Source: Candidatus Micrarchaeota archaeon (lineage in GTDB: Archaea > Micrarchaeota > Micrarchaeia > Anstonellales > Anstonellaceae). Taken from it: a stretch of DNA of 64,000 bases. Each line of letters begins with the position of its first letter. The stretch's first letter is position 1. The notes beneath the pieces were generated by a model that saw nothing but the letters and a program-made list of their open reading frames with translations, was not told the DNA's origin and did not search any database. Below, one piece after another: positions 1,108 through 40,847 of this stretch. The position numbers and the translations under genes were made by a program. Where the stretch lies: assembly GCA_964392435.1 (NCBI GenBank), contig CAYMOY010000002.1:116479-180478 (forward strand), written 5' to 3'.

Positions 1108-1402
1108 GTCCCATGCTAATCTTGTGAAATTTAAAAAGAGTGGCTCTTGCCCCAATTATCTGGCAAGCGAGGCTTGCGCTATTCAAAATCAATTGTGTCA
1201 GCAGCAATGCGCCTTCCCGCGGAGACCGCAGTACAAACAACATCGTGAGGGGGCTTAACTTCCGAGTTCGGAATGGGTTCGGGTGTTTCCCCCCTCCTAT
1301 GACCGCTGACGGCTCTCAATGTGGGGGCAAGCCTTTTTAACCATTTCTGCGCAGATTGAATGCTACTTATCCATAAACTACAACATATACGGATGAGATT
1401 CC

Positions 1403-4293: not shown

Positions 4294-5109
4294 GTGCTAA
4301 TGATAGACTACAAGTATTTCGCATATGGGGCGGCAGCGCTTGGAGTGCTGGGCGCAATCGGCTCTTTTGTCAGCGGGGGCAACGCCATCTTCGGCTTCAT
4401 ATTCGGGCTGATGTGCCTCATAGGCTCAATCGGGGCAATCGCGTTTTACAAGTACGGCTACATACTGGTTCCGATGCTGACCCAGAGGGGCAATATCGTG
4501 CAAATCATGGAGGGCGGCTATGAAATACCCCCTTCCAACGACGTGGTGATAAAGAATGTTGGGGGGGCGTACTACGCCAGCAAATACCTCGGGGTGCGCG
4601 TTTACGAGTCTGCATCCGAGAAAACGGTTGAGGAAAACATGGTTTATTCGGAATATTTCGAGCGCGCAATTTCAGGAGTGAAATACGTGACCAAGTTCGC
4701 GATAATGGTCTATATGAAGGATATAAGCGACCACAGGAGCAGAATAGAGACCAAGCATGCCGAAGCACAGCTGCGCCTTGCGCGAGAGAGGGACAAGCCG
4801 GACCCAGATGTGCTCAAAATGGACCGGTACGAGAAAGAAGTTGCCATGTGGGAAAACCAGATAAACAAGCTGACGCGGGGCATCAAGCCCATGGGATTGG
4901 TCTCGTATGTAATGACCACGGCTGTCGGAGTGAGCAAGGAGGCGGCAACCGCGGCTGCCTCTGCGCAGGCAAACGAGCTGAAGGCAACTGTTGCAAATGC
5001 GCTGAATGTGCAGGTTGAAATCCTGTCAGGAGACGAAATGCTGCGCTGCTTCCAGTGGGAGGTCATGATCCCTCCGACTCCGCAGGAGCTGGAGCAGGCT
5101 GTCCTTTAA
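4294..5109 (+). CDS. membrane protein: two N-terminal TM helices plus ~190-aa soluble domain; first gene of the ATPase operon
   Basis: Hydrophobic segments AAALGVLGAIGSFV and IFGFIFGLMCLIGSIGAIAF. 82-nt gap to the ATPase gene. Confidence 0.5.
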   Translation: MLMIDYKYFAYGAAALGVLGAIGSFVSGGNAIFGFIFGLMCLIGSIGAIAFYKYGYILVPMLTQRGNIVQIMEGGYEIPPSNDVVIKNVGGAYYASKYLGVRVYESASEKTVEENMVYSEYFERAISGVKYVTKFAIMVYMKDISDHRSRIETKHAEAQLRLARERDKPDPDVLKMDRYEKEVAMWENQINKLTRGIKPMGLVSYVMTTAVGVSKEAATAAASAQANELKATVANALNVQVEILSGDEMLRCFQWEVMIPPTPQELEQAVL

Positions 5110-5191
5110 GGCTGCCTTGCGCCAAAAAAAGAGCCGGCAGGCGCAGATTGTGCGCAGGATTGTGGATTGCCCTTTGGAATGGTGTTGAGAA

Positions 5192-6811
5192 ATGGGAAGG
5201 CTGACGCTGTCGGAACTTGACAATGTGGATGTGGCGCGGCGCAACATATTCGTCAGGCCCCCTGAGCCGCCTGAAGAGGCGCTGATGGCGGATCCGACCA
5301 ATGCGATTTACATAGGCAGAACCAAGATATTCCATGTGCCTTTCTACTGGACTTTCCAGAAAACAACCAACCCGCACATCTGCGTGGTGGGAATCACAGG
5401 CTCAGGAAAATCCTATTTTGTCAAGACCTTCCTCACCCGCGCATCGTTTGTCTGGGGCACCAACGCGTTCATCATAGACTGGGCAGGGGAATACAAGGAT
5501 TGGGTGAAGCAGACCGGCGGCAAGGTAATCTCGCTTGGCCGCGGCTCGGCAATCAATCTGCTGGACACGGCGGGCATGAAGCCCAACGACCGCGTCAAGC
5601 AGGTGATGAGGACATTGGATGTGCTTACTGATATCGGCAGGTACCCCGAGCAGAAGAGGCTGACCGAGCTTGCGATAGAAAAGGCCTATGTTAACAGTAA
5701 ATTCAAGCTTGACTCCAAGCTGCAGGTTGATGGGCTTGGAAGGCAGCTTAAGCCCCCAACCCTCAAAGACGTGCAAAAGGTGCTGGAGGACATGAGCGAG
5801 GCGGGCTCTTACGAATTTCCCGCGGAGCTTGAAAACGCGATATACCGCATACGCCAATTCACGCGCGAAGGGGAGGATTTCTTCGCGCAGCAGTCCACAA
5901 TCGATTTGGAAAAATTGACCAAGGCTGGCTTGGTTGACCTGGACCTCTCCGGATTGCCAGATGAGACTTTCAGGGGGCTTGCCGCGCTTTCCATGCTGCA
6001 ATTCATAAAGGAAAAGATGCGCGAGGAGGGCTGGTCATCGACAAAAGGCCTCAAGCTTTTGGTGGTTTTGGACGAGGCGTGGAAGGTCGCCAAGGACGAC
6101 AATTCCGACGCAGTGATGATTGTGAGGGAGGGGCGTAAGTACCAGTTCGGGCTGATTGTCGCCTCTCAAAACCCGACAGACATATCCGAGGCGATATTCT
6201 CGAATGTGGGAACCACGTTCATACTTCGCGTCAAGTTCGAGCGTTTCCTAGATTATCTGCAGTCCACCCTGAATTTTTCGGACTACATGCGCGAGGGCAT
6301 TGCCAAGCTGGGGGTGGGGCAGGCGGCAGTCAACATGGCATTCCAGGCAACTGCCGATTACTCGGAAACCTTCCTAATTGAGAAGATAGAGGGGGAAGAG
6401 CCGATGCAGGAGTTCTTTTTGGACCTTGATTCGGTGCTTTCCCAGGAAGAGATGGCGATGGAAGGCGCGGTCCGCTCATTGTCGTTTGAAAAAGACGAAC
6501 TGAAAAAGAAGATGCGGGAGTTTGGGATGGGGGAGGAGCAGGGGGATGAAATTGTGGCGCTTTTCTCCAAAAAGGGCAGGCGATTGGGGATATCTTCGTT
6601 TGTGGTGCTGCTGCAGAGATATGGGATAGCGAGGAACAACATCGGCGGTTTTCTCAAGGAACTGGGCTTGGAGGACACCACCTTAGTTACTGTGCTCTCA
6701 AGCGCGGACGAGCTTTCAATAAAGCTTGGCGACCAGGACATAACCGAATACATTGTGAGCGAAGGCGAGCCAGAAACGCAGCCCCGCTCGCAAAGGCCCA
6801 GGGGAAGATGA
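5192..6811 (+). CDS. FtsK/HerA/VirB4-superfamily P-loop ATPase (VirB4/CedB-like, DUF87-type)
   Basis: Walker A VVGITGSGKSYFVKTF; Walker B LLVVLDEAWKV; downstream ASQNPTDISEAIFSNVGTTFILR resembling the VirB4/HerA Q/TQ...IFL motif. C-terminal ~80-aa domain repeated in next gene. Confidence 0.7.
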   Translation: MGRLTLSELDNVDVARRNIFVRPPEPPEEALMADPTNAIYIGRTKIFHVPFYWTFQKTTNPHICVVGITGSGKSYFVKTFLTRASFVWGTNAFIIDWAGEYKDWVKQTGGKVISLGRGSAINLLDTAGMKPNDRVKQVMRTLDVLTDIGRYPEQKRLTELAIEKAYVNSKFKLDSKLQVDGLGRQLKPPTLKDVQKVLEDMSEAGSYEFPAELENAIYRIRQFTREGEDFFAQQSTIDLEKLTKAGLVDLDLSGLPDETFRGLAALSMLQFIKEKMREEGWSSTKGLKLLVVLDEAWKVAKDDNSDAVMIVREGRKYQFGLIVASQNPTDISEAIFSNVGTTFILRVKFERFLDYLQSTLNFSDYMREGIAKLGVGQAAVNMAFQATADYSETFLIEKIEGEEPMQEFFLDLDSVLSQEEMAMEGAVRSLSFEKDELKKKMREFGMGEEQGDEIVALFSKKGRRLGISSFVVLLQRYGIARNNIGGFLKELGLEDTTLVTVLSSADELSIKLGDQDITEYIVSEGEPETQPRSQRPRGR

Positions 6812-6812
6812 A

Positions 6813-7109
6813 ATGGCGAAAACACTGTTCTTCTCAAAGGAGGAATTGGGCCGGAAGCTGCGCACTTTCGGCCTTGAGGAACTCCGGGTCGCAGACATAA
6901 CCACCGTGTTTGACCGGAACAACCACCACATAGACGTGGTCTCGTTCGTGATAATGCTGGAAAGATACGGGGTGCAGCGGCCCGATATTTCCTCCTTCCT
7001 CCACGACATAGGGGTGGACGAATCCACATTGATAAATATTTTTTCCAAGGCGGACTTCACCCGGATTGGAATGGGAAACCGCGAGATAACGCAGGTAGTG
7101 TTGGCTTAG
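6813..7109 (+). CDS. small protein homologous to the C-terminal domain of the preceding ATPase
   Basis: SFVIMLERYGVQRPDISSFLHDIGVDESTLINIFSKAD aligns with SFVVLLQRYGIARNNIGGFLKELGLEDTTLVTVLSSAD in the ATPase C-terminus (~35% identity). Start abuts ATPase stop. Confidence 0.5.
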   Translation: MAKTLFFSKEELGRKLRTFGLEELRVADITTVFDRNNHHIDVVSFVIMLERYGVQRPDISSFLHDIGVDESTLINIFSKADFTRIGMGNREITQVVLA

Positions 7110-7121
7110 GGAGATTTAGGG

Positions 7122-7532
7122 GTGTGTTTGATGGCAACCGTGTGCATAATATGCGAAAAGGAAACTGGCGGAAGGCGCGTGATGGACGACTTTGTCATAA
7201 GGGCCATAAGAAAAGTCAAGTCCGCCCTCAGGATTGCCAAGAACAACACCTTGGTGGTCTGCCCAGGATGCATTGAGACTTATGCCTCCAAGCGCACAAA
7301 ATACGAGCGCGACCTGGTGATGCACGCGATAGTGGGCGGTATGGTGCTTCTGCTTTTCGCGCTGCTGCCTATTTTCACAACCGGATTTTCGCTTTTGCCC
7401 ATATTGCTCGGGCTGATGCTCTTCGCGCTCATAATGGCACTGTCCGTTTTCTCGCACTGCCCCAAGTTGGAGGAGAAGCGGCAGGCCGATGAACCCGCGA
7501 GGAAAAATGCTAAGAAAGTGAAGAAAAAATGA
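7122..7532 (+). CDS. zinc-ribbon (CxxC...CxxC) protein with two TM helices
   Basis: CIICEKE...CPGCIE then hydrophobic GGMVLLLFALLPIF and LLPILLGLMLFALIMALSVF; Lys-rich C-terminus. Probable ATG at 7131. Confidence 0.45.
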   Translation: MCLMATVCIICEKETGGRRVMDDFVIRAIRKVKSALRIAKNNTLVVCPGCIETYASKRTKYERDLVMHAIVGGMVLLLFALLPIFTTGFSLLPILLGLMLFALIMALSVFSHCPKLEEKRQADEPARKNAKKVKKK

Positions 7533-7536
7533 TTGA

Positions 7537-8319
7537 GTGGTGTTTACCTTGGCAGACCAAAATCAGGCAAACTTTCCAGACGGCAGGGCAAAGCCCCAAG
7601 CTGCGCTTTCCAGCGAGCCCAAAGTGGGCGGATTTAGGCTGCAGGCAAAGAGGCTGAAAAGCCCGTCTGAGATATCCCAAAGGCTCTCCGAGCTTTCCTT
7701 CCTGGAAATGAGCATGGACAAAGACGTGCTTACCGCGCTTAATGTCGAATCGCGGGACATCCAGAAGAACCCTTACTTGTTTTCCATAATATATTTCAGG
7801 CCGACCATGGTGGAGGCGCTTTACTCCTGCCTTCCGAACATGAGCCCGAAAAAGAGGAGGATAGACGTGCTGAAGCACTGCCTGAACCTGATGACATTGG
7901 CGGAAGACTGCTATGATGTTGAAACCCGCCAAATATACCAGCTGGTCGAGGCTTCGGTGGCGGACATGACAGAGTATGTTTCTGCCGATTATGACCGACT
8001 CTTTGCGCTTTATGACAACCTCAAGACGGACTTTGCTGCGTTGCAGAAGAAATACAACGAAGCAAAGGATGCCAGCGGCTCGCTTTCCAAGGAGAACTAC
8101 GACCTGAAAAGCAAAAACGACGAGCTTACGCTGAGGCTCAAGTCGCTTGAGACCTTCTCGGACACGGTGCTTGCGCTCAAGATACAGGAATGGCTTTCCG
8201 AGCACAAGGGGGAGATAAACATCTCTGACTTTGCCAAGGTTTACAACGTGCCCGAGATGCGGGTGGAGCAAATGCTCAACAAGCTGGTGACCGAGGGTTA
8301 CCTTGAGACCAAGGGCTAG
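7537..8319 (+). CDS. coiled-coil protein with C-terminal winged-helix-like domain
   Basis: GTG start 4 nt after upstream stop (first ATG at 7708). Heptad-rich middle (LKTDFAALQKKYNEAKDASGSLSKENYDLKSKNDELTLRLKSLE); C-terminal DFAKVYNVPEMRVEQMLNKLVTEGYLETKG resembles a wHTH. Confidence 0.4.
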   Translation: MVFTLADQNQANFPDGRAKPQAALSSEPKVGGFRLQAKRLKSPSEISQRLSELSFLEMSMDKDVLTALNVESRDIQKNPYLFSIIYFRPTMVEALYSCLPNMSPKKRRIDVLKHCLNLMTLAEDCYDVETRQIYQLVEASVADMTEYVSADYDRLFALYDNLKTDFAALQKKYNEAKDASGSLSKENYDLKSKNDELTLRLKSLETFSDTVLALKIQEWLSEHKGEINISDFAKVYNVPEMRVEQMLNKLVTEGYLETKG

Positions 8320-8339
8320 CGCCCCTGCCGCGTGTTTGC

Positions 8340-10982
8340 ATGAGCGAGGACCAACAGACTCTCAAGCTCAAGATTGCCAAGAAGGCATACATATTCGATG
8401 TGAGGAAAAGATTTGCCGCAAGCCGCACCTTTGCAGTCAAAAAAGCCCCTGAAACGCCAGCAGAGGACCTCAAGGAGAAGCTCAAGAGCCTGCTGGAGAA
8501 AAAAAAGACGCCTCTTGACAGCGCTGCGCCTGGTGGAAATGGCGCCTTGCCAGGGCAAAAGCCAGCCTTGGATGCCCCCCGAGGCGTTGGAGCCGGCCTG
8601 ATTAAGATTGCGGCGATAACAGCTGCTTTGGTGATTTTCGGTTTTCTTGGCCTTTTGGCAATGCTGCCCCCTGGCGGGGGAAGCGGGCCGTTGCAGATTG
8701 TGCCTGCAGACCTGTTCACAGGTAGCCTCTCCTTTTCTGTTGATGAGGGCATGGTGCTGACCGTGGAGGGGGAGGATTCTGCGCAGCACGCAGGTTATTT
8801 TCTGCTTTCCTACCAGGCAGCCAACCTTTCCGACCTGAATTTCACCGCCAAGCTCTACTCGCAGCAGCCTCCGACCCAAGTTTTCATATTGGACTATCCG
8901 AAAGACAGCGGAAGCTCCTACCCTGTTTTCAAAAAATACCTTGTTTCCAACCTGGCCCGGCTTGGGATACCGACCAATGAGATAGAGATAGGCATGGTGG
9001 GCCGCCTGCCCGCCGGGGCAGTGCTTTTGATTCCCACCGGCTATTTCCCGAAAGAGCTTCTCGGGGTGGACAATGAATTCGACTACCAGGACCTGCTTGG
9101 CCGCGGCGTGACGATAATCTACATAGGGCTGCCGTTTGACAACCAGGCTCTTGGCAGAGACGGTCTTGCAGTACAGGTCAGCCACAAAAAGATTGCCTTT
9201 GACAAAAAAGCCCGCCCAAAGTCAACTGACGGGTTCGGGCTTTTCAACGCGCAATATTCTGCCGCACCTGCCCAGACATACGCGGAAAACACCCTTTTTG
9301 CCTCTCCGCCCATCTACGGATCGATATCGGTGGTGAGGTACAAAACCGGCTCCATGCTAATCCTCCCCCAGAGCCTTGATGGCGGATGGCGCGAGAGGGA
9401 CGTTTCAGGCGCCTGGAGCGAAAAGGGCGGGATTGCCGCGCAAGACGTGGCGCGGCTGATAGCTGAGGAGCCCTGGATGCAGGAAATTTCCTCGGCCAGA
9501 TCCGCCGCCCTTCTTGGCAGCAATAAAGAAGGCAGACTCTCTTTGTTCACAGGCAAATTCAGCGCCGAATCGGCTTTTGTGAAGCTTGCAGCAGATGCTG
9601 CGGACCAGGACGGCTCTTTTCAGCGCAGCCTTGAAGTCTTTCGGATTGAGAAGTCCCAGAGCGGGAAGATGGTGCCTTCCGAGCCGCAGGCTGTCCCTTA
9701 TTACCTTTCAGGCCAGCGAACACGACTGAATGTGGCGCTTCGGGAGAACAGCTCCGCGCAGGTCAAGCTATATGTGGAAATGTACAAGGACGGGAGGCTG
9801 CTCCAGCGAACCGACCTTGAGCCGGGGCTCACAACACCGACAACGGACAAATCGGTGGACATACAGGTGAATGCCGAGCCTGGCAATTATGTGGTGGTGG
9901 TCGCGGACGAGCAGGGAAAAATCTATGCCGCCTGCGAGCTTTCGGTGACCGACCTTAACATCGCAGTCAACCAGAGCAATTGGAACAAGGGCAGGTTTTC
10001 CTTCCTCCTCTCATCAGCAAACCAGCCGGTGGAGCCGCGCAGCCTGTCCATTTCTTTCGACGGGAAGGAAGAGGCGCGATATTCCCCCTCCTCCCTGCGC
10101 CCAGGAGTCAGCGCAACTGAGGTGGAGTATGTTTACCCGGGAAAGATAGAATCCGGCCCCCATGTTTTCCTATTTACTGTTGGGACTTACCAAAAGAGCC
10201 TGAGCCTTTCCTATGACCGAATCCCGCCTTTTTGGGAGAACCCGGTTTTCATCGTGCTGACCCTCCTTGCGGCGGGGATTGGAGCAATGGGAATGGCATT
10301 GCGCAGGCCTGATTCTGTCAGATACGGCCTGGACATACCCGACTTCCCGCCAATGTCGACCATAAAAATACCTGTGAAGCGCGAAACGGTTATGGAAATA
10401 TTCTCCTCGGTGAACAGCGGCTACGCATGGCAGCGCATGCCTCTGAGGTTAGATGAGATAAAAAACGGATTCCGGAAGCTGACTTACAACGGCAAGCCGA
10501 TTCTGGTGGGGGATTTCAACCTCGAGCGGATACTTTCCAAGCTGGCTGATGAAGGGCTGGTGAAAGAGGAGCTGGGCTACTTTGGCCTGACTAGCTGGGA
10601 AAAGGAAAGCAACCACTCCATACGCTATCTTGCCATATACCGGATTATGCGCAACGTGTTTGTGAACAATGCTGTTAAGTTCTCCAAGCTTGACGCAATG
10701 CAGGACTGCGACATGAAGGCAATCGCTGGGAACGAGGAGATTTATTTGCACATAATGGAGGAGCCGGAGGAAACCGTGGTGCACCGGGCGCTTGCAACTG
10801 CGAAAAAAGGCACCACCCTGATAATATTCAAGACCTCCGAGGAGAGGGACGAATTCCGCTCCTCGCTCACCTCCACCTCCAAGCTGGCAGTCGGCCTCAA
10901 GATGGAGGTGGATGGCGGCAGGATAATGCTTTTCAACGCGAAAAACGACGTTCAAGCCTACCTGAAGGGAATCAACAGGTGA
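8340..10982 (+). CDS. large bitopic membrane protein (880 aa): Lys-rich cytoplasmic N-term, TM, ~540-aa extracytoplasmic region, second TM, ~230-aa C-terminal domain
   Basis: TM1 LIKIAAITAALVIFGFLGLLAMLPP, TM2 NPVFIVLTLLAAGIGAMGMAL. Last gene of the co-directional cluster. Confidence 0.5.
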   Translation: MSEDQQTLKLKIAKKAYIFDVRKRFAASRTFAVKKAPETPAEDLKEKLKSLLEKKKTPLDSAAPGGNGALPGQKPALDAPRGVGAGLIKIAAITAALVIFGFLGLLAMLPPGGGSGPLQIVPADLFTGSLSFSVDEGMVLTVEGEDSAQHAGYFLLSYQAANLSDLNFTAKLYSQQPPTQVFILDYPKDSGSSYPVFKKYLVSNLARLGIPTNEIEIGMVGRLPAGAVLLIPTGYFPKELLGVDNEFDYQDLLGRGVTIIYIGLPFDNQALGRDGLAVQVSHKKIAFDKKARPKSTDGFGLFNAQYSAAPAQTYAENTLFASPPIYGSISVVRYKTGSMLILPQSLDGGWRERDVSGAWSEKGGIAAQDVARLIAEEPWMQEISSARSAALLGSNKEGRLSLFTGKFSAESAFVKLAADAADQDGSFQRSLEVFRIEKSQSGKMVPSEPQAVPYYLSGQRTRLNVALRENSSAQVKLYVEMYKDGRLLQRTDLEPGLTTPTTDKSVDIQVNAEPGNYVVVVADEQGKIYAACELSVTDLNIAVNQSNWNKGRFSFLLSSANQPVEPRSLSISFDGKEEARYSPSSLRPGVSATEVEYVYPGKIESGPHVFLFTVGTYQKSLSLSYDRIPPFWENPVFIVLTLLAAGIGAMGMALRRPDSVRYGLDIPDFPPMSTIKIPVKRETVMEIFSSVNSGYAWQRMPLRLDEIKNGFRKLTYNGKPILVGDFNLERILSKLADEGLVKEELGYFGLTSWEKESNHSIRYLAIYRIMRNVFVNNAVKFSKLDAMQDCDMKAIAGNEEIYLHIMEEPEETVVHRALATAKKGTTLIIFKTSEERDEFRSSLTSTSKLAVGLKMEVDGGRIMLFNAKNDVQAYLKGINR

Positions 10983-14591: not shown

Positions 14592-14670
14592 GCTTCCTTT
14601 CAGCTGCAAAGGGTTTATAAATATATTATAAACCACTTATTACAACATTCTCTTCCATTGCCTAATAGTC

Positions 14671-14681
14671 AAATATATAAG
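14671..14681 (+). promoter_or_regulatory. TATA-box-like element (aaatatataag) ~22 bp upstream of AAA ATPase ATG; implies leaderless transcript
   Basis: AT-rich hexamer island in otherwise GC-rich DNA, spacing typical of archaeal TATA-to-TSS. Confidence 0.35.
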
Positions 14682-14702
14682 ATACCTGCGCGTTTTTCCT
14701 GC

Positions 14703-17441
14703 ATGGCAAACGGGGGCAGCGGTGCGCGGGGCATGAGCAAGCAAAAAGTGCTTGCCACCATGCAGATGCTGCGCACGGACGAGAACCTCGGCGGGGCAAT
14801 CCTGGTGGCCCTGGGCACGCTTTTTCTCCTGCTCACCTTCACATTCTACCCGTTTTACCTGGTGCCGCTGCTTGCAGCCGCCGCAGGAACGCTTGCCTAC
14901 CGCAAGCCACCCCTTGGCACGATACTGGGAATGCTGCTCGCCTTTCCAGCTGTGGCGTACCAGGCGCCTGTGCTGGCCTGGATTTTCTGCGCCGCACTGG
15001 CCATCACGCTTTTCGAGGCGTTTGAGCATTGGAGCACCATCTCTTTTTTGCAGATTGCGATAATGGCGCCTTTTGCCCCCGCTCCATTCTCATATGTTTC
15101 AGGCTTCCTGTTCCTGCTTTTGGGGATTGCCGCGCTGCGCTTTGGCAGCAGACATTCCTTTGCAGTGTCGCTTCCCGCAGTATTCATCGTGCTTCTGCTT
15201 TCAACAATATGGCTGCACCCGACCGCCTCGTTCATCACAATATCCGAGGACTACCATTCCCTTTACAGCCCTGGCATGGAGCAGCTGATGAACAATGAAA
15301 AGCCGGAGGTGGGGGTTGAAGGAATTCTTCCAGCCGGCGCAGAGGCGGTTGCTTCCCTTTTCTCAGGAGAGAACATCCGCGTCTTTTCAGACGCGTTGGG
15401 GCTGATTGCCTCAAACACAGTAAAGCTTTTTGCCTCCGACTTTGCCCTGCCGCAGCTATTTGCCTGGGCTGCTGCTCTTTTCGCCTGCGCCATGCTGCCC
15501 CCGCTTATTGAGGACGGCGGGATTTTCATGTTCCTCAAGCCAGCCGTGCGCTCGCGATACAAGCAGAGCATAGCCTCGCTTGCGCTATTCATAATACCGC
15601 TCTCAAACTTCTTGCTCGCCCCCTCATTCAAGAATCCTGTGGAGCCCCTCTCGTTCGCATACTGCGCGGCAAGCGTGGGCGTCATCGCGGCAATGGAGCA
15701 CTACGGGATTTCGCTTTCGCGCGAAAGGATGGTCTCACGCCGCGAGAAGCAGAAAACTTTCGGGAAGTTCGGTGTGCAGGACCTCTCCGAGTCGGACGGC
15801 GTGGACTCGCTTGCCGATGTTGGCGGCTATGAGGATGTGAAACTCGAGCTTCGCGAGGCGATAATAGCCCCGATAAAGCAGAAGGAGCTGACCTACACAT
15901 ACGGGATAAAACCGCCCACGGGAATACTGTTTTTCGGCCCGCCAGGAACAGGAAAGACGCTTCTGATGAAGGCGCTTGCCAAGGAGCTGGACATCGGCTT
16001 TTACTACGTGAAATGCTCGGACCTGCTCTCAGAATGGTATGGCGAAAGCGAAAAGAACGTTTCCGAGGTGTTCACAGCCGCGCGCAAGAACGCGCCATGC
16101 GTGCTTTTCTTCGACGAGATAGACTCCATTGGCAAGAGGCGAGACTCCTACACCAGCGATGACGTGGCGCCCCGCGTGATGTCGGTGCTGCTGCAGGAGC
16201 TGGATGGGTTCAAGGGAAAGAAGAACGTGATAACGATAGGCGCGACCAATGTGCCTGACCAGCTGGACCCGGCGCTCATGCGCCCTGGCAGGTTTGACAA
16301 GGTAATTTACATGCCCCTGCCGGACATCGAGGCACGCAAAGCGATTTTCAAGGTGCATCTGAAGAAGCTGCCCTTGGAGCCAGACGTGGATTTCGAGCGG
16401 CTGGCGATTATGACCGAGCGGCACTCTGGCGCAGACATAAAGAACATCTGCACCGAAGGGAGCAGGCTGGCTGCGCGCGAAGCCATGAAGTCCGACGTGG
16501 TTGTCCCGGTTTCCATGAAACATTTGACCGCCACCATAAAAAAAGTCAAGCCCTCAGTCACGCTTGACATGGTAGAAACCTACAGCAAGTTCCGCATGGA
16601 CTACGAGCGCAGAAGCGAGGCTGTTGAGAAAAAGCCTGATGAGAAAGGGGTGCGCTGGGAGGATGTTGCTGGATTGGAGGAGGTCAGAAAAACGCTTCTT
16701 GAATCCATTGAGATGCCGCTTTTGCACGAGGACTTGATGAAGGAGATGGATGTCAAGCCCTCCAAAGGATTGCTGCTTTTCGGTCCGCCAGGATGCGGAA
16801 AGACGATGATAGTCAAGGCTGCTGCAAACGAGCTTAACGCGAACTTCCTGACAATATCCGGCTCAGAGCTGATGAGGGGCCGCGACCGGAACCCGGCGTC
16901 ATATGTCAAGGAAGTGTTCAACCGCGCCCGCGAGAGCGCCCCGGCTCTGGTTTTCATAGACGAGATAGAGGCGCTTGCGCCCAGCCGCGACGAGTACCGC
17001 GGAGGCATATTGACCGAGTTATTGCAGGAGCTGGACGGGGTGAAGGAGCTGAAGAATGTGATGATTGTAGGTGCGACCAACAAGCCTGCCGCGCTTGACG
17101 GCGCCATATTGCGCCCGGGCAGGTTTGACAAGATACTCTACATTCCCCCGCCAGACGCGCCTGCGCGCAAGCAGATATTCACAGGCAGCCTTGCCAAATT
17201 CCTGGAGAGGCTGAATTTGGACAAGCTTGCAAACGCCACGGACGGATTTTCAGGCGCAGATGTCGCCTCCATATGCCAGGAGGTGAAGATGCAGCTGGTG
17301 CGCGACCGGCTTTCAGGCAAGCCCACAGTGGCGACCACCGATTCTGTGATGAGGGTGATTTCCTCGCGCCGCCCCTCAGTCACCCAGAAGGACCTGAGGG
17401 AGTATTTTGCCTTCATGCAGGAGTATGGGGAGAGGAAATAA
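14703..17441 (+). CDS. membrane-anchored tandem-AAA ATPase (CDC48/VCP-like D1+D2 cassettes fused to ~350-aa polytopic N-terminal domain)
   Basis: N-terminal ~8 hydrophobic helices. Walker [16 protein letters not shown] and [15 protein letters not shown]; Walker B VLFFDEID / LVFIDEIE; SRH-like [20 protein letters not shown] and [20 protein letters not shown]. Confidence 0.75.
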
Positions 17442-36582: not shown

Positions 36583-36668
36583 GCTGGGGTCGCATAACCC
36601 GGTATTGCGGCAGGTTGCTAACCTGTTGGGGGGAAACCTCCGTGCGAGTTCAAATCTCGCCCCCGGCA
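36583..36668 (+). tRNA. tRNA-Ser (anticodon GCU), type II with long variable arm; CCA not encoded
   Basis: Hand-folded. Acceptor GCTGGGG/CCCCGGC (one G-U); 3-bp D stem GCA/TGC; anticodon stem GCAGG/CCTGT, loop TTGCTAA; variable stem GGGGG-AAA-CCTCC; T arm GCGAG-TTCAAAT-CTCGC. Confidence 0.85.
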
Positions 36669-36785
36669 TATTCAACAGGATATGCGAGGCATTGGGGCAG
36701 CAGCTCCAATCGTCCCCGGCATATTCAGCAGGATATGCGGGGCAGCGGAACCGCAGTTCTGCTTGTCCCGGCATAGGCTGAATGG
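36661..36785 (+). repeat. three degenerate direct repeats of the tRNA-Ser 3' end plus ~25 bp
   Basis: Two full ~31-bp copies ccccggcatattca(a/g)caggatatgcg(a/g)ggca at ~52-bp spacing, and a third partial copy cccggcataggctgaat. First copy begins inside the tRNA acceptor 3' strand. Confidence 0.6.
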
Positions 36786-36823: not shown

Positions 36824-37156
36824 ATGCGGAACGGTTTTTTGCTATTCATATTTGTGCTGGCCCTCTCCGCAACCTCATGCGCCACTATGCTTGGCAGCGT
36901 GCAGGATGCGGTCTCCCAGCTTTGCCTCAACCTCAAAAGCCTAATTCCAGTGGTTGCGATGATGATGCTGGTGTTGGGCGGGGTAATCTATGCAGCCGGG
37001 CAGATGATGGGGGCTGAGACGCGCGCAAGGGCGAATGTGTGGGCGACTGCCTGCCTGACAGGCGCGCTGATTGCGATACTGATTGTCGTCGTGGCGCAGC
37101 CGGTGCTGCAGACAATATACGGCGACCTTGGCACCATTTCATGCGATGTGGCTTAG
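36824..37156 (+). CDS. pilin-like small secreted two-helix membrane protein, paralog 1 (VirB2/TrbC-like topology)
   Basis: Signal peptide MRNGFLLFIFVLALSATSCA; conserved core KSLIPVVAMMMLVLGGVIYAAGQMMGAETRARANVWATACLTGALIAILIVVVAQPVL; SD aggtga. Confidence 0.6.
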   Translation: MRNGFLLFIFVLALSATSCATMLGSVQDAVSQLCLNLKSLIPVVAMMMLVLGGVIYAAGQMMGAETRARANVWATACLTGALIAILIVVVAQPVLQTIYGDLGTISCDVA

Positions 37157-37202
37157 ATTTGTTTAAATTTCTTTTCTGAGAATAAGAGAAAGGAGGGATT
37201 TG

Positions 37203-37544
37203 ATGGGGAAATTGGCAGTATTGCTTGCGTTTGCGGTTGTTGGCGGCATGTTGTTTGCCACAGTGAACCCGCTTTCCAATGTTAATGAGGCTGTAAACAC
37301 ACTTTGCAAAGGCTTGAAGAGCCTGCTTCCGATTGCCGCAATGATGGCAATAGTGCTTGCCGGCGTGATTTATGCTGCGGGGCAGATGATGGGCGCTGAG
37401 ACACGCGCAAGGGCGAACGTCTGGGCGACTGCCGCACTGACAGGCGCGCTGATTGCGATACTGATGGCTGTGGTTGCGCCTGCCGTTCTGGGAATGATAT
37501 ATGGCAGCAGCTGGAGCACCGGAGTAAGCAGTTGCATTGCTTGA
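37203..37544 (+). CDS. pilin-like small secreted two-helix membrane protein, paralog 2
   Basis: MGKLAVLLAFAVVGGMLFA signal; same core; SD aggaggg. Confidence 0.6.
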   Translation: MGKLAVLLAFAVVGGMLFATVNPLSNVNEAVNTLCKGLKSLLPIAAMMAIVLAGVIYAAGQMMGAETRARANVWATAALTGALIAILMAVVAPAVLGMIYGSSWSTGVSSCIA

Positions 37545-37635
37545 TTTTTTTCCTCATTTTTCTTTTTTCCAAATACCCCTTAGTTTAAAATGTTTATTCT
37601 CGAATAGGCATCAACAGTACTTTAGGAGGGATTTG

Positions 37636-37959
37636 ATGGGGAAAATAACGGTATTGCTTGCGTTTGCGGTTGTTGGCGGCATGTTGTTTGCCACAACGCC
37701 TCTGGACAATGTCAATTCTGCGGTGAGCAGCCTTTGCAGTGGCTTGAAGAGCCTGCTTCCGGTTGCTGCCATGATGGCAATAGTGCTTGCAGGTGTCATC
37801 TATGCGGCAGGGCAGATGATGGGGGCTGAGACGCGCGCAAGGGCGAATGTGTGGGCTACTGCCGCGCTGACTGGTGCGCTGATTGCGATACTGATGGCTG
37901 TGGTTGCGCCTGCCGTTCTAAACACAATATACGGAACGCAAGGAACTATCCAATGCTGA
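37636..37959 (+). CDS. pilin-like small secreted two-helix membrane protein, paralog 3
   Basis: MGKITVLLAFAVVGGMLFA; near-identical core and upstream region to paralog 2; SD aggaggg. Confidence 0.6.
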   Translation: MGKITVLLAFAVVGGMLFATTPLDNVNSAVSSLCSGLKSLLPVAAMMAIVLAGVIYAAGQMMGAETRARANVWATAALTGALIAILMAVVAPAVLNTIYGTQGTIQC

Positions 37960-38038
37960 GTTTTTTTCTCATTTTTCTTTTTTCCAAATACCCCTTAGTT
38001 TAAAATGTTTGCCGGAAAATTTCCATAAGGTGATTGCG

Positions 38039-38509
38039 ATGGGATTTGCACGGTCCATTTCGGTTTTCTTGCTCGTTTTGCCCTTGGCTTTTGCATCAGG
38101 CACGCCGCTTGCTTCGGTGAATCAGGCGGTTTCCTCTCTTTGCAGCGGGCTAAACTCCCTTCTCCCGGTTGCCGCCATGATGGCAATAGTGCTTGGTGGG
38201 GTCATCTATGCTGCCGGGCAGATGATGGGGGCTGAGACGCGCGCACGCGCCAATGTATGGGCAACCGCCTGCCTGACAGGGGCAATAATCGCAATAATGA
38301 TTGCAGTTGTCGGGCCGGCTGTTCTCAAGATGATGTATGGGCAGGAGCTAGCGTGCGGGGGCAGCAGCCAACCGCCCACAGGCTGCCAGGCAGGATATTC
38401 GGCCTGCGGAACAGGGGGGCTTTGCTGCGGCGGGTCAACCCCGAAATGCTGCAACCCATCTAGCGCCCCAAGCTGTGCGAGTAATAACGCACTGTGCACC
38501 ATATCTTGA
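38039..38509 (+). CDS. pilin-like paralog 4 with Cys/Gly/Ser-rich C-terminal extension
   Basis: MGFARSISVFLLVLPLAFASG signal; same core; tail GGSSQPPTGCQAGYSACGTGGLCCGGSTPKCCNPSSAPSCASNNALC. Confidence 0.55.
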   Translation: MGFARSISVFLLVLPLAFASGTPLASVNQAVSSLCSGLNSLLPVAAMMAIVLGGVIYAAGQMMGAETRARANVWATACLTGAIIAIMIAVVGPAVLKMMYGQELACGGSSQPPTGCQAGYSACGTGGLCCGGSTPKCCNPSSAPSCASNNALCTIS

Positions 38510-38600
38510 GCTTTGCCACCATTTGGCTGCCAGCAGGCATTCCCCCTGCTTTAAAAGGATTGCAGCAGATTCCTAATTGGAAAAAATCCGGGGGATTTTA

Positions 38601-39344
38601 ATGGCTATTGATTTTCATATTACCGCAAAGCCCAAGCTCAAAAAGCCAGTCCTGGTGGAAGGCTTTCCCGGCCTTGGCCTGGTGGGCACTATTTCGGCAA
38701 GCTACCTTGTTGAAAAGCTGAAGATGGAGCCGCTGGGCTACATTACAGGTGACCAGTTCCCACCGCTTGCCGCGGTGCACAACAGGCGCCCGCTTTATCC
38801 TGCGCGCATGTATTACTCCATCCGCCACGACCTGATAGTTTTCATATCTGAATTCGTGATTCCGATAGCTGCGGTGAACGAGCTTGCGGACAAAATCCAC
38901 GATTTTGCGAAAAAGAACCGGGTGAGCAGGATAATCTCCTTGGGCGGAATCACGATAAAAGGCGAGCAGGACGAGGTTTTTGCAATCGCATCCCTTCCGG
39001 AGCTTATCCCTGCGCTTGAGAGGCTGCCTAGCGTAAAGATGATAAAGGAGGGCGCCACCACGGGAGTTACCGGGGTGCTTCTGGCAAGGGGCGCGGTGGA
39101 GAACTATCCGGTGATTTCCCTTCTTGCAGAGTCGCAGGAAGGCTACATGGACCCAAAAGCGGCTGCCATGGTCTTAGAAGTGCTAAAGGCGATGCTCAAG
39201 TTCGACATTGACACCAAGACGCTGGAAAACGAGGCGAAGGCGATTGACACCAAGGTGAAAGATGTCATGAGCAAGGCAAAAACAGCGCACAGCGATTACA
39301 AAAAGGTGCAGGACGGCGCAAGCCTCGGCCCCATGTACGGCTAG
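38601..39344 (+). CDS. PAC2-family proteasome-assembly chaperone (PbaA/PbaB-like)
   Basis: MAIDFHITAKPKLKKPVLVEGFPGLGLVGTISASYLV matches the PAC2 N-terminal signature. Confidence 0.6.
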   Translation: MAIDFHITAKPKLKKPVLVEGFPGLGLVGTISASYLVEKLKMEPLGYITGDQFPPLAAVHNRRPLYPARMYYSIRHDLIVFISEFVIPIAAVNELADKIHDFAKKNRVSRIISLGGITIKGEQDEVFAIASLPELIPALERLPSVKMIKEGATTGVTGVLLARGAVENYPVISLLAESQEGYMDPKAAAMVLEVLKAMLKFDIDTKTLENEAKAIDTKVKDVMSKAKTAHSDYKKVQDGASLGPMYG

Positions 39345-39416: not shown

Positions 39417-40031
39417 TTGATGGAAGAATACAGGCTGCCTGATTTGCCTTATGCATACGACGCGCTGGAGCCCTATATTGACGAGGCCACCATGAGGCTG
39501 CACCACGACAAGCACCACAAGACATATGTGGACAAGTTCAACGCCGCCCTTGCAACAGTGCCGGAGTTCCGCGCAAAGGTGGCAAGCGCCGAAGATGCGC
39601 TGCGCGACCTTTCCGCCGTGCCTGAAAGCATCAGGGGCGCGGTGCGAAATCATGGGGGAGGGGCAGTGAACCATTCGTTTTTCTGGAGCGGCATGACAAG
39701 CGAAAGGCAGTCTCCAAGCGGAAAGCTTGCCGAGGCGCTTTCCAGGAAATTCGGAAGCGTAGACAAGTTCGAGGAGGCGTTCTCCGCTGCCGCGGCAGGC
39801 GTGTTCGGCAGCGGCTGGTGCTGGCTTGTCCTGAACGGAAGAGAGATGGAAATAATGACCACTCAAAACCAGGACAGCCCGCTCTCTGTTGGCAAGATGC
39901 CGCTCCTCACCTTGGATGTTTGGGAACACGCATATTATAAAAAATATGGCCCAGCCAGGGTTGAATACATCAAGAACTGGTGGAATATAGTAAATTGGCA
40001 GAAAGTCGAGGAGAATTATAAGCTACGCTAA
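39417..40031 (+). CDS. sod: Fe/Mn superoxide dismutase
   Basis: LPDLPYAYDALEPYIDEATMRLHHDKHHKTYV ... DVWEHAYY. Confidence 0.85.
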   Translation: MMEEYRLPDLPYAYDALEPYIDEATMRLHHDKHHKTYVDKFNAALATVPEFRAKVASAEDALRDLSAVPESIRGAVRNHGGGAVNHSFFWSGMTSERQSPSGKLAEALSRKFGSVDKFEEAFSAAAAGVFGSGWCWLVLNGREMEIMTTQNQDSPLSVGKMPLLTLDVWEHAYYKKYGPARVEYIKNWWNIVNWQKVEENYKLR

Positions 40032-40847
40032 AGAAGTAGCCGCATTCAAACTAAGCCAGTTTTTCAGATATATAATTTTTTCCTCTTTTAATTTCGTAGT
40101 GCTGATATTTTCAAAGAATCTTTTTATGCATTCTTTTTTATAGACCCTCAGATGGTAAGCTCTTTTTCGATTATCGTCTTTTGGTTCCTGAATGGAATAA
40201 GCTGATATTATGCTCGCTTCATTCAGTATTTTTCTTATGGATTCTAGAAAACCATAGTTCGTATTGGTGATGTCTAGGCATATCTTCGGAGTCCTTCTTA
40301 CTTTCTCTTTTATGATTTTGACACAGCCTTCTGCATCAAAAAAACCTTCAACGAACAACAATTTTGAACGCATGTCTGTTTGTGCCAATAAATTTTCCAA
40401 ATAAACAGAATTCTCTCGCGCCTTTTTGAAAAATGAGTAAAGTTCAAAATTGTTTGACCTAACAAACCACACATTTTTACTTCGAATGATGTATGGTTTA
40501 TCTACTTTGGAAATGCATGAAGCCAGCATCTTAGAATATTTTTTTGTGAATATTCTGTCCCCCACAAGAATAACGTAATTCCTAGTTATTTTCCAATTAT
40601 AGATGCAGCCGTCGCCTAGTAAAGCGCCAAGCACATAGAAAAGCTCTGGTTTTATCATGATTTTTCCTTTGCGCCCGTTGGGTAGGTAATCTCCCTTATA
40701 CCAACAATAAATAGTCCCTCTCGGCAAGGAAAATTTATTATGGACGATATTAACGATATCTCTTCGGGGGACGTTTTCTGCTTTGAGCTTTTCGAAAAGA
40801 GCAAATGCCCGAAGCCTAACTGTGTGATTTGTCCGTATGCCCACCAT
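40023..40847 (-). CDS. LAGLIDADG homing endonuclease (double-motif), AT-rich foreign gene
   Basis: LGALLGDGCIY (motif 1) and FVEGFFDAEGCV (motif 2). Local GC visibly ~35% vs ~58% surroundings. In frame with, and 15 nt downstream of, the truncated integrase ORF. Confidence 0.75.
   Translation of the reverse strand: MVGIRTNHTVRLRAFALFEKLKAENVPRRDIVNIVHNKFSLPRGTIYCWYKGDYLPNGRKGKIMIKPELFYVLGALLGDGCIYNWKITRNYVILVGDRIFTKKYSKMLASCISKVDKPYIIRSKNVWFVRSNNFELYSFFKKARENSVYLENLLAQTDMRSKLLFVEGFFDAEGCVKIIKEKVRRTPKICLDITNTNYGFLESIRKILNEASIISAYSIQEPKDDNRKRAYHLRVYKKECIKRFFENISTTKLKEEKIIYLKNWLSLNAATSLA

Follow-up and report, generated by a model that had tools for sequence, protein, structure and literature searches.

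What kind of protein do four tandem paralogous genes beside a tRNA gene of a micrarchaeon encode, and does the array belong to the chromosome or to a mobile element? The array lies in a 64-kb stretch of DNA from a Candidatus Micrarchaeota archaeon (contig CAYMOY010000002.1), the whole of which is called the window here. An earlier note on this DNA, made from the sequence alone, had read the gene products as VirB2/TrbC-like pilins that arose by recent duplication and hinted at an origin from a mobile element. Profile comparisons and predicted architecture indicate that the array proteins are quite probably distant members of the VirB2/TrbC pilin superfamily. The more specific reading, that they form a Micrarchaeota-specific branch of this superfamily which likely builds a surface tube or filament for contact with a host cell, is the one that we favor, at a probability of roughly 55%.

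The array and its products

Four paralogous open reading frames (ORFs) follow one another on the forward strand at 36824-38509, exactly where the earlier note had located them. They are called c1 to c4 in array order; the database proteins and loci compared with them carry P-numbers and L-numbers, respectively. The first-position paralogue, c1 (36824..37156), encodes 110 amino acids (aa), c2 (37203..37544) encodes 113 aa, and c3 (37636..37959) encodes 107 aa. The length of ~110 aa previously given for each product fits these three but not c4 (38039..38509), whose 156 aa comprise the hairpin and a C-terminal Cys-rich module. This 56-aa Cys/Gly/Pro-rich tail (residues 101-156; 38339..38506) contains 9 Cys and is predicted to be extracellular and disulfide rich. 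The products of c2 and c4 are identical to database proteins P0001 and P0085, and P0271 is likewise identical to a window protein. A DNA repeat search found a 228-nucleotide (nt) core in all four copies at 71-85% identity. Over their full lengths, c1 is 60-66% identical to c2-c4 (alignment A1), and the mature domains are 85% identical between c2 and c3 and 80% identical between c3 and c4. A search with a hidden Markov model of the family found no fifth copy in the window.

Hydropathy shows three hydrophobic segments in each product, namely, a signal sequence and two transmembrane helices (TM1 and TM2). The signal is of the n-h-c Sec type and ends in FA or AFA, a small-x-Ala site from which cleavage is predicted. 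It is followed by an amphipathic N-terminal helix (hydrophobic moment [muH], 0.36-0.53, matched by no more than 2.2% of shuffles) that carries a Cys in each of the four copies. The loop between TM1 and TM2, GQMMGAETRARAN, is the same in all four and has a net charge of +1. An AlphaFold2 (AF2) model of c3 is an all-helical hairpin of two long helices (residues 3-60 and 64-103; predicted local distance difference test score, 80). Hydropathy, helix moment, and the AF2 model agree with the topology proposed earlier, including the helical hairpin, and the leader with its predicted cleavage, the two hydrophobic helices, the short basic loop, and the small mature size together make up a VirB2-type architecture. 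No N-X-S/T sequons were found in c1-c4. The ~55-aa core that had been described as almost invariant has 42 of its 56 alignment columns identical among the four copies, and full invariance extends over only 23 aa, VIYAAGQMMGAETRARANVWATA. Across 113 domain copies of the family, the mean entropy per column amounts to 0.17 bits for the loop, 0.86 bits for TM1, and 1.01 bits for TM2, against 2.3-2.4 bits for the signal, the exposed N-terminal segment, and the tail. Two other assignments were tried and rejected: a type IV pilin or archaellin with a class III signal, given the Sec signal, the two TM helices, and an all-helical model with no beta-rich domain; and a c/K proteolipid of ATP synthase, given that TM2 (VWATAALTGALIAILMAVVAPAVL) has no Asp or Glu to serve as the conserved carboxylate and that an N-terminal signal and exposed Cys are present.

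Sequence similarity to conjugative pilins is faint and recurrent. In Pfam, PF18895 (T4SS_pilin; T4SS, type IV secretion system) matches all four copies at 9-14 bits against a cutoff of 26.6 bits, and the single-sequence matches also include Yip1, cytochrome bd subunit II, DUF6768, and similar families, all below threshold. Across 35 members of the family, PF18895 and PF04956 (TrbC/VirB2) are the two most frequent Pfam families, matching 27 members (best E = 3e-6) and 23 members (best E = 2e-6), respectively, at E <= 1. Two proteins that are 62-68% identical to c3 (alignment A2) narrowly pass a gathering score, both matching nearly the whole profile: P0051 passes that of PF18895 (27.7 versus 26.6 bits), and P0118, whose match spans positions 13-97 of the 98 in the profile, passes that of PF04956 (28.4 versus 27.9 bits). 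Some members already bear automated PF18895 or PF04956 tags in databases. For c3 (1.3e-3) and c4 (7.5e-3), the sole NCBIfam match is the TrwL pilin model NF033899, far below its 100-bit cutoff. When the family profile was compared with all PDB sequences, the best match was the TrwL pilin of R388 (8s6h; E = 0.11), the rest being noise. Alignment by hhalign to TrwL-type pilins taken from plasmids (R388, NC_028464, via tblastn) gave P = 1.1e-4 and a probability of 57%, with the leader cleavage site, the N-terminal helix, the LP(V/I)AA motif, and TM1 in register; a more diverse family alignment brought no gain (P = 2e-4; probability, 47%). The pilins CedA1 and TedC, to which the products had also been likened, were not matched at E <= 10 in the PDB profile search, where only TrwL and spurious proteasome hits appeared; this negative presumes that the Aeropyrum and Pyrobaculum pilus chains are within the PDB copy that was searched. 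The proposed pilin kinship is therefore upheld by Pfam, NCBIfam, the PDB profile search, and hhalign as a probable, distant relation to VirB2/TrbC, and no similarity to CedA1/TedC was detected.

All searches confined the family to Micrarchaeota, where it is phylum-wide and multicopy. The closest homologues are named Candidatus Micrarchaeota, Micrarchaeia, or Anstonellaceae. A word-indexed search found at least 940 database relatives, and an exhaustive profile search found 400 clusters (50% identity) at E <= 1e-3 and 298 at E <= 1e-10. When a single genome from each GTDB species was scanned with a sequence pattern, 76 loci were recovered, several per genome; every locus with a taxon name belongs to Micrarchaeota, and a few are titled only "archaeon." Our search of the literature available in the library found no paper tying Micrarchaeota or DPANN archaea to VirB2-like pilins.

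The most regular feature outside the hairpin is a pair of cysteines. Of the 113 domain copies, 98% have Cys34 in the N-terminal helix and none lacks a Cys in the tail, where it follows TM2 by a median of 7 aa. The tail contains exactly one Cys in 183 of 257 proteins; among the other 74, the number is odd in 59 (binomial p = 1.3e-7), and the sum over N-terminal segment and tail is even in 238 of the 257. The near-universal pair and the odd parity of the tail argue for a disulfide between the N-terminal helix and the tail, and such a pairing would place both ends outside the cell. The simplest reading is that Cys34 and the first tail Cys would clasp the exposed ends together and that the remaining tail Cys would pair with one another. 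Head-to-tail cyclization is established for TrbC and VirB2 pilins, and by analogy the clasp would do here what cyclization does there. Tail length in the family ranges from ~10 aa to 1,152 aa with 161 Cys, which also argues for a C terminus outside the cell. No Pfam domain matched the Cys-rich tails. The giant members P0195, P0206, P0219, P0191, and P0198 (900-1,276 aa; 124-161 Cys) have their Cys in repetitive C/G/N/S/T-rich modules behind a pilin-like N terminus, and the C-terminal end of P0219 is a Gly_rich_2 domain (PF21722). A divergent relative, P0233 (1,071 aa; from ENA contigs of 6-12 kb), has an N-terminal domain of ~390 aa followed, in the same reading frame, by seven fused pilin-like hairpins with the loop motif GGSNF(I/L)PGQTRGSLQGYAM; this protein represents either an array akin to a polyprotein or another lineage's version of the family.

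Duplication, synteny, and the question of mobile origin

The genes of the array carry regulatory motifs of their own, largely as the earlier note had claimed. TATA-like GTTTAAAW boxes at 37161, 37583, and 37998 lie 34-46 nt before the ATG codons of c2, c3, and c4; the motif occurs six times in the window, always intergenic and in an upstream position, and three of the six are in the array. Shine-Dalgarno (SD)-like motifs precede all four genes, AGGAGGG for c2 and c3 and AAGGTGA for c1 and c4. The promoter-like element of c2 (37161..37197, forward strand) consists of GTTTAAAT (37161-37168) and the SD motif AGGAGGG (37191-37197). Both c2 and c3 have T-runs after their stop codons. A module made up of a stop codon, T-runs resembling archaeal terminators, and the GTTTAAAA box occurs on the forward strand at 37542..37595 and, as detected by repeat search and alignment, again at 37957..38010 ahead of c4, the two being 96% identical. 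A scan for sigma-70 promoters and intrinsic terminators, which does not apply to archaea, gave nothing useful.

The spacers ahead of c3 and c4, previously described as near-identical, are so (96%) over their first 54 nt only, and their SD-proximal halves diverge. A separate patch of 72 nt links the SD and signal region of c2 (37191-37262) to that of c3 (37624-37695) at 94% identity. This makes the units of the array mosaics, each with promoter-like and terminator-like elements of its own. In the core (residues 40-98), the Nei-Gojobori method gave 0.50-1.24 synonymous substitutions per site (dS) and 0.04-0.17 nonsynonymous substitutions per site (dN), with dN/dS ratios of 0.08-0.21; the core is under strong purifying selection. 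The signal region of c2 and c3, with a dS of 0.12, is the sole young-looking part. Furthermore, the first array genes of L024, L025, and L026 share 85-86% identity with c1, which is much nearer to them than to c2-c4; the latter three are one another's nearest relatives. One duplication is therefore older than the divergence of these species, and the duplications that produced c2-c4 are lineage specific yet not recent. The recent tandem duplication inferred in the note from the spacers does not survive these comparisons, and the near-identical flanking patches point to local homogenization or recombination.

The array was correctly placed directly 3' of tRNA-Ser and its associated repeats. ARAGORN and Rfam identify the tRNA as tRNA-Ser(GCT) (36583..36668, forward strand), and the same gene directly precedes the first pilin gene in at least nine other Micrarchaeota loci. 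Two 53-nt tandem direct repeats that are 77% identical (36657..36762, forward strand) start in the last 12 nt of the tRNA gene, and a partial third unit extends to ~36785, for ~2.3 units in total. Each unit has a GCATAT..ATATGC hairpin, and the region folds better than shuffled sequences (z = -3.1). The repeat is peculiar to this genome, relatives having an oligo-T run in its place, and it could be an integration scar or a product of slippage.

Clustering of the neighbors of the 76 pilin loci yielded two conserved chromosomal sites. At the type A site, to which the window belongs, the order is eRF1 .. FtsZ .. Yip1, tRNA-Ser(GCT), one to seven pilin-like genes, PAC2, and Fe/Mn superoxide dismutase (SOD); L002 has seven pilin-like genes in tandem. 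In the window, the PAC2 gene is at 38577-39344 and the SOD gene is at 39417-40031, both on the forward strand and both identified with Pfam. PAC2 was found downstream of the array in 21 loci, and SOD was in 17. The last array gene before PAC2 often has a Cys-rich tail, as in c4 and in L024, L025, L058, L068, and L074. The layout of the array is ordered, in that the first gene is conserved, the genes in the middle vary in number, and the last gene bears a Cys-rich knob; this order suggests major subunits accompanied by a minor or adhesive subunit. At the type B site, found in at least 18 loci, a single copy stands between OGG/NFACT and genes for an Na+/H+ exchanger, a metallo-beta-lactamase (MBL)-fold protein, and PheRS-alpha.

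Downstream, on the reverse strand at 40023-40847, a free-standing LAGLIDADG homing-endonuclease-like ORF (274 aa) shares 9 nt with the 3' end of the SOD gene. Its GC content is ~34%, compared with ~55% around it, and it looks like a foreign insertion.

These observations bear on the suggestion that the array is of mobile or accessory origin. One could suppose a recently duplicated cassette brought in by an element that integrated at tRNA-Ser: the 53-nt tandem repeat copies the 3' end of the tRNA, the 54-nt and 72-nt near-identical patches tie the units together, and the low-GC LAGLIDADG gene lies 1.5 kb downstream. However, the shared order of tRNA-Ser, array, PAC2, and SOD in many genomes defeats the mobile-element idea, and the core dS values and the presence of c1 orthologues in other genomes likewise oppose it. 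In addition, the array does not differ from its flanks in GC content, ORF and Pfam searches found no integrase near the array, and searches of viral contigs, plasmids, and phages found no relatives of the family. We consider such a cassette highly improbable; the pilin family is a vertically inherited core family and not mobile cargo.

Candidate machinery and competing explanations

The candidate cognate ATPase that the earlier note had pointed to at 5192-6811 (forward strand) is CedB/CedD/VirB4-like rather than a canonical HerA. Its NCBIfam matches are CedD (1e-21), CedB (1.5e-21), VirB4-type models (1e-17 to 2e-16), and HerA (5e-13), and Pfam finds DUF87, AAA_10, and TraG P-loop domains. The gene is part of a five-gene operon on the forward strand (4294-10982) that also encodes a 271-aa protein (4294-5109) with an N-terminal hydrophobic block (residues 9-54) that has room for two TM helices, a 136-aa Zn-ribbon/TM protein (7122-7532), a 260-aa protein (7537-8319), and an 880-aa protein with two hydrophobic segments (8340-10982). 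In the conserved operon generally, the last two products have ~255 and ~860 aa. The order of the operon is kept in L080-L082, and the ATPase is 64-92% identical across Micrarchaeota. No Pfam family reached its gathering score in the other four genes, and a PDB sequence search with the 271-aa protein found nothing meaningful; one protein of the operon has a faint EAP30/Vps36-like C terminus. In the window, 30 kb separate the operon from the array; in L080, its distance to a pilin-PAC2 pair is 8.6 kb. We infer that it is the best candidate motor for the pilin-like proteins.

Outside the window, a Micrarchaeota-conserved protein of the P0230 type (~515 aa) has two pilin-like hairpins fused to a polytopic domain. 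Its gene is the second in a conserved operon of six paralogous polytopic proteins (L087, 8686-16381; L088, 8665-16475) that share the motif LPxGxxLRAFPPTRxxG and the C terminus GG..I.GLT..I. These six paralogues had no Pfam match, and a PDB profile search returned only spurious matches to hepatitis B virus capsid.

We hypothesize the following scheme for the array. The Sec machinery would insert the proteins, and signal peptidase I would cut at about residue 19-20, leaving a mature membrane-embedded hairpin whose two ends face the outside and whose loop is cytoplasmic. The disulfide between Cys34 and the first tail Cys would clasp the exposed ends while the hairpin is in the membrane pool. A CedB/VirB4-like system, possibly that of the operon 30 kb upstream, would then drive the extraction of subunits from the membrane and their stacking into a lipid-associated tube or a short filament. 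The invariant loop might line the lumen or touch the assembly machine, the variable ends would form the outer surface, and the knobbed product of the last gene could act as a minor or adhesive subunit beside the major ones. The structure would serve an episymbiont for contact with, or transfer to or from, its host cell.

Several points weigh against this scheme. The four proteins themselves are subthreshold for every pilin model, the hhalign probability is only 47-57%, and fold searches returned generic helical hairpins only, the fold being too simple to discriminate. Signal cleavage, the disulfide, and the filament are predictions made from sequence. The ATPase scores far below all equivalog cutoffs and has no VirB4 N-terminal domain. 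At the 76 pilin loci, the neighbors are housekeeping genes, and no VirB4, VirB6, or other T4SS gene and no homologue of the ATPase was found at a distance of 10 kb or less. No VirB6-like gene was found in the window, and no neighbor of the pilin genes proved to be a CedA/TedA-type polytopic protein or a CedB/TedB-type ATPase.

The main alternative is that the hairpins are fixed membrane subunits or anchors that form no external filament, either in a complex with polytopic partners, as CedA1 with CedA, or as tethers for Cys-rich surface domains, the short forms being accessory. Throughout the phylum, the loop and the two TM helices hardly vary, as would be expected for a fixed interaction partner; a loop so extremely conserved is atypical of VirB2 pilins and could equally fit a fixed membrane complex. 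The hairpin is found twice fused to the N terminus of a polytopic protein, in gene 2 of the six-paralogue operon, and this too may suggest a stable complex. However, a T4SS or Ced pilin coexists with a pilin-like N terminus in VirB6 or CedA (PMC9905601), which makes the polytopic fusion compatible with a pilus, and the six-gene operon was seen at L087 and L088, outside the window. Many members are N-terminal modules of Cys-rich proteins of 400-1,276 aa, as tethers would be, but 183 of the 257 are bare hairpins with a tail of ~10 aa and have nothing to anchor. The lack of an adjacent T4SS cluster suits this explanation, whereas the best database relatives, which are true pilins, do not. On balance, we regard it as rather unlikely.

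An improbable alternative is that the proteins belong to an unrelated small membrane family (a holin, a bacteriocin or immunity protein, an ATPase proteolipid-like ring, or a transporter subunit) and that the pilin matches are noise. Subthreshold single-sequence Pfam matches mixed with Yip1, cytochrome bd subunit II, and DUF6768 are what noise would produce, and the fold search is nonspecific. Against this, three independent pilin models and a PDB pilin recur as the top or only matches. The absence of a conserved carboxylate in TM2 speaks against a proteolipid-like ring, and a cleavable signal with extracellular Cys-rich tails is unlike holins and immunity proteins. Throughout the phylum, moreover, these are core genes that keep their synteny, with no phage, plasmid, or toxin context.

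The pilin branch with a likely surface tube or filament is therefore the reading that we retain, and it can be extended, tentatively and at less than even odds, to the whole system. Micrarchaeota, and perhaps other DPANN archaea, may have a domesticated, chromosomally dispersed apparatus derived from a T4SS that serves as a conduit for host contact or as an attachment organelle. Its pilins would be disulfide clasped, with an invariant lumen or loop face and variable outer ends, and some would bear Cys-rich adhesin modules. The CedB/VirB4-like ATPase operon might provide the drive, and the six polytopic paralogues might provide the membrane platform. The apparatus would be parallel in origin to the essential T4SS and pilin arrays of Patescibacteria.

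Three further features were recorded. In the window, a 5S rRNA gene (1196-1310, reverse strand; Rfam, 80 bits) is isolated, with neither a 16S nor a 23S rRNA gene beside it, and the region 14658-17441 encodes a CDC48-type double-AAA ATPase of 927 aa with a Vps4_C-like C-terminal domain. In a Micrarchaeia metagenome-assembled genome, ARAGORN called a 95-nt "tRNA-Stop" with anticodon TTA (L055, 6865-6959), which may be suppressor-like or intron containing.

Comparison with known pilin systems

It is not settled how DPANN archaea bind to host cells and exchange material with these cells; connections that resemble pili or tubes have been observed, with components that are, to our knowledge, largely unidentified. 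An abundant, phylum-wide, strongly constrained family akin to conjugative pilins is a concrete candidate for such a host-contact structure. If the reading given here is true, it extends T4SS-type pilins to a third archaeal lineage and places free-standing VirB2 arrays in both radiations of ultrasmall symbionts, the Candidate Phyla Radiation (CPR) and DPANN. The disulfide clasp from N to C terminus would be a new closure of a VirB2-type pilin, replacing enzymatic cyclization, and the series of Cys-rich tails (56 to 1,152 aa) suggests modular display of adhesins on a pilin scaffold.

The Micrarchaeota proteins share with the VirB2/TrbC/TrwL pilins (PF04956, NF033899, 8s6h) a leader, an amphipathic helix, two hydrophobic helices, a basic loop, and a mature size of ~70-95 aa. 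Profile similarity between them is weak but recurrent, and the motifs LP(V/I)AA and (I/A)YAxG are common to both and in register. In contrast, the Micrarchaeota genes stand at archaeal housekeeping sites and not in a T4SS cluster, with several paralogues per genome and a loop that is invariant throughout the phylum. Their Cys pair, with its putative clasp, takes the place of TrbC/VirB2 cyclization, and some members have long Cys-rich C-terminal extensions.

The organization of the locus resembles that in Patescibacteria, where an array holds 2-11 VirB2 genes whose identity averages 25% and reaches at most 54% (PMC12102498); the Micrarchaeota arrays comprise 1-7 genes. In both groups, tandem genes for Sec-secreted VirB2-like hairpins lie in the chromosomes of ultrasmall, host-dependent organisms with no relaxase context, and PF18895, the family of the CPR arrays, is also the most frequent Pfam match of the Micrarchaeota family. 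The T4SS of Patescibacteria is essential for epibiotic growth (PMC12857230). The likeness is one of organization only. The Micrarchaeota family is archaeal, its within-array identity is 60-85%, and it is never beside VirB4, whereas the pilin is near virB4 in 1,135 of 1,948 CPR assemblies (PMC12102498); neither a Cys clasp nor Cys-rich tails have been reported in CPR.

The CedA1 and TedC pilins (PMC9905601) are archaeal, chromosomal, domesticated VirB2-like two-helix pilins, as the array proteins probably are too, and the signal peptide of TedC is cleaved by signal peptidase I (PMC9905601). Their partner ATPase is CedB/VirB4-like, as is the candidate in Micrarchaeota, and the CedA-type fusion of a pilin-like hairpin to a polytopic protein is comparable to the P0230-type relatives. 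However, the PDB profile search detected no sequence similarity to CedA1/TedC. The Ced and Ted pilin genes adjoin CedA/TedA and are near CedB/TedB, unlike those of Micrarchaeota; the systems belong to Thermoproteota and not to DPANN, and their descriptions include neither multicopy arrays nor Cys features.

According to PMC12102498, the T4SS of Bartonella and Anaplasma have tandem VirB2 paralogues that are read as a means of surface variation or host adaptation. This is the same tandem amplification of pilins with variable exposed parts, but in that account the arrays are inside T4SS loci of intracellular bacteria, whereas the Micrarchaeota arrays are free-standing and their c1 lineage is anciently conserved. 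The Micrarchaeota family is thus set apart from these systems by its DPANN host, its detachment from any T4SS cluster, its invariant loop, its putative Cys clasp, and its Cys-rich tails.

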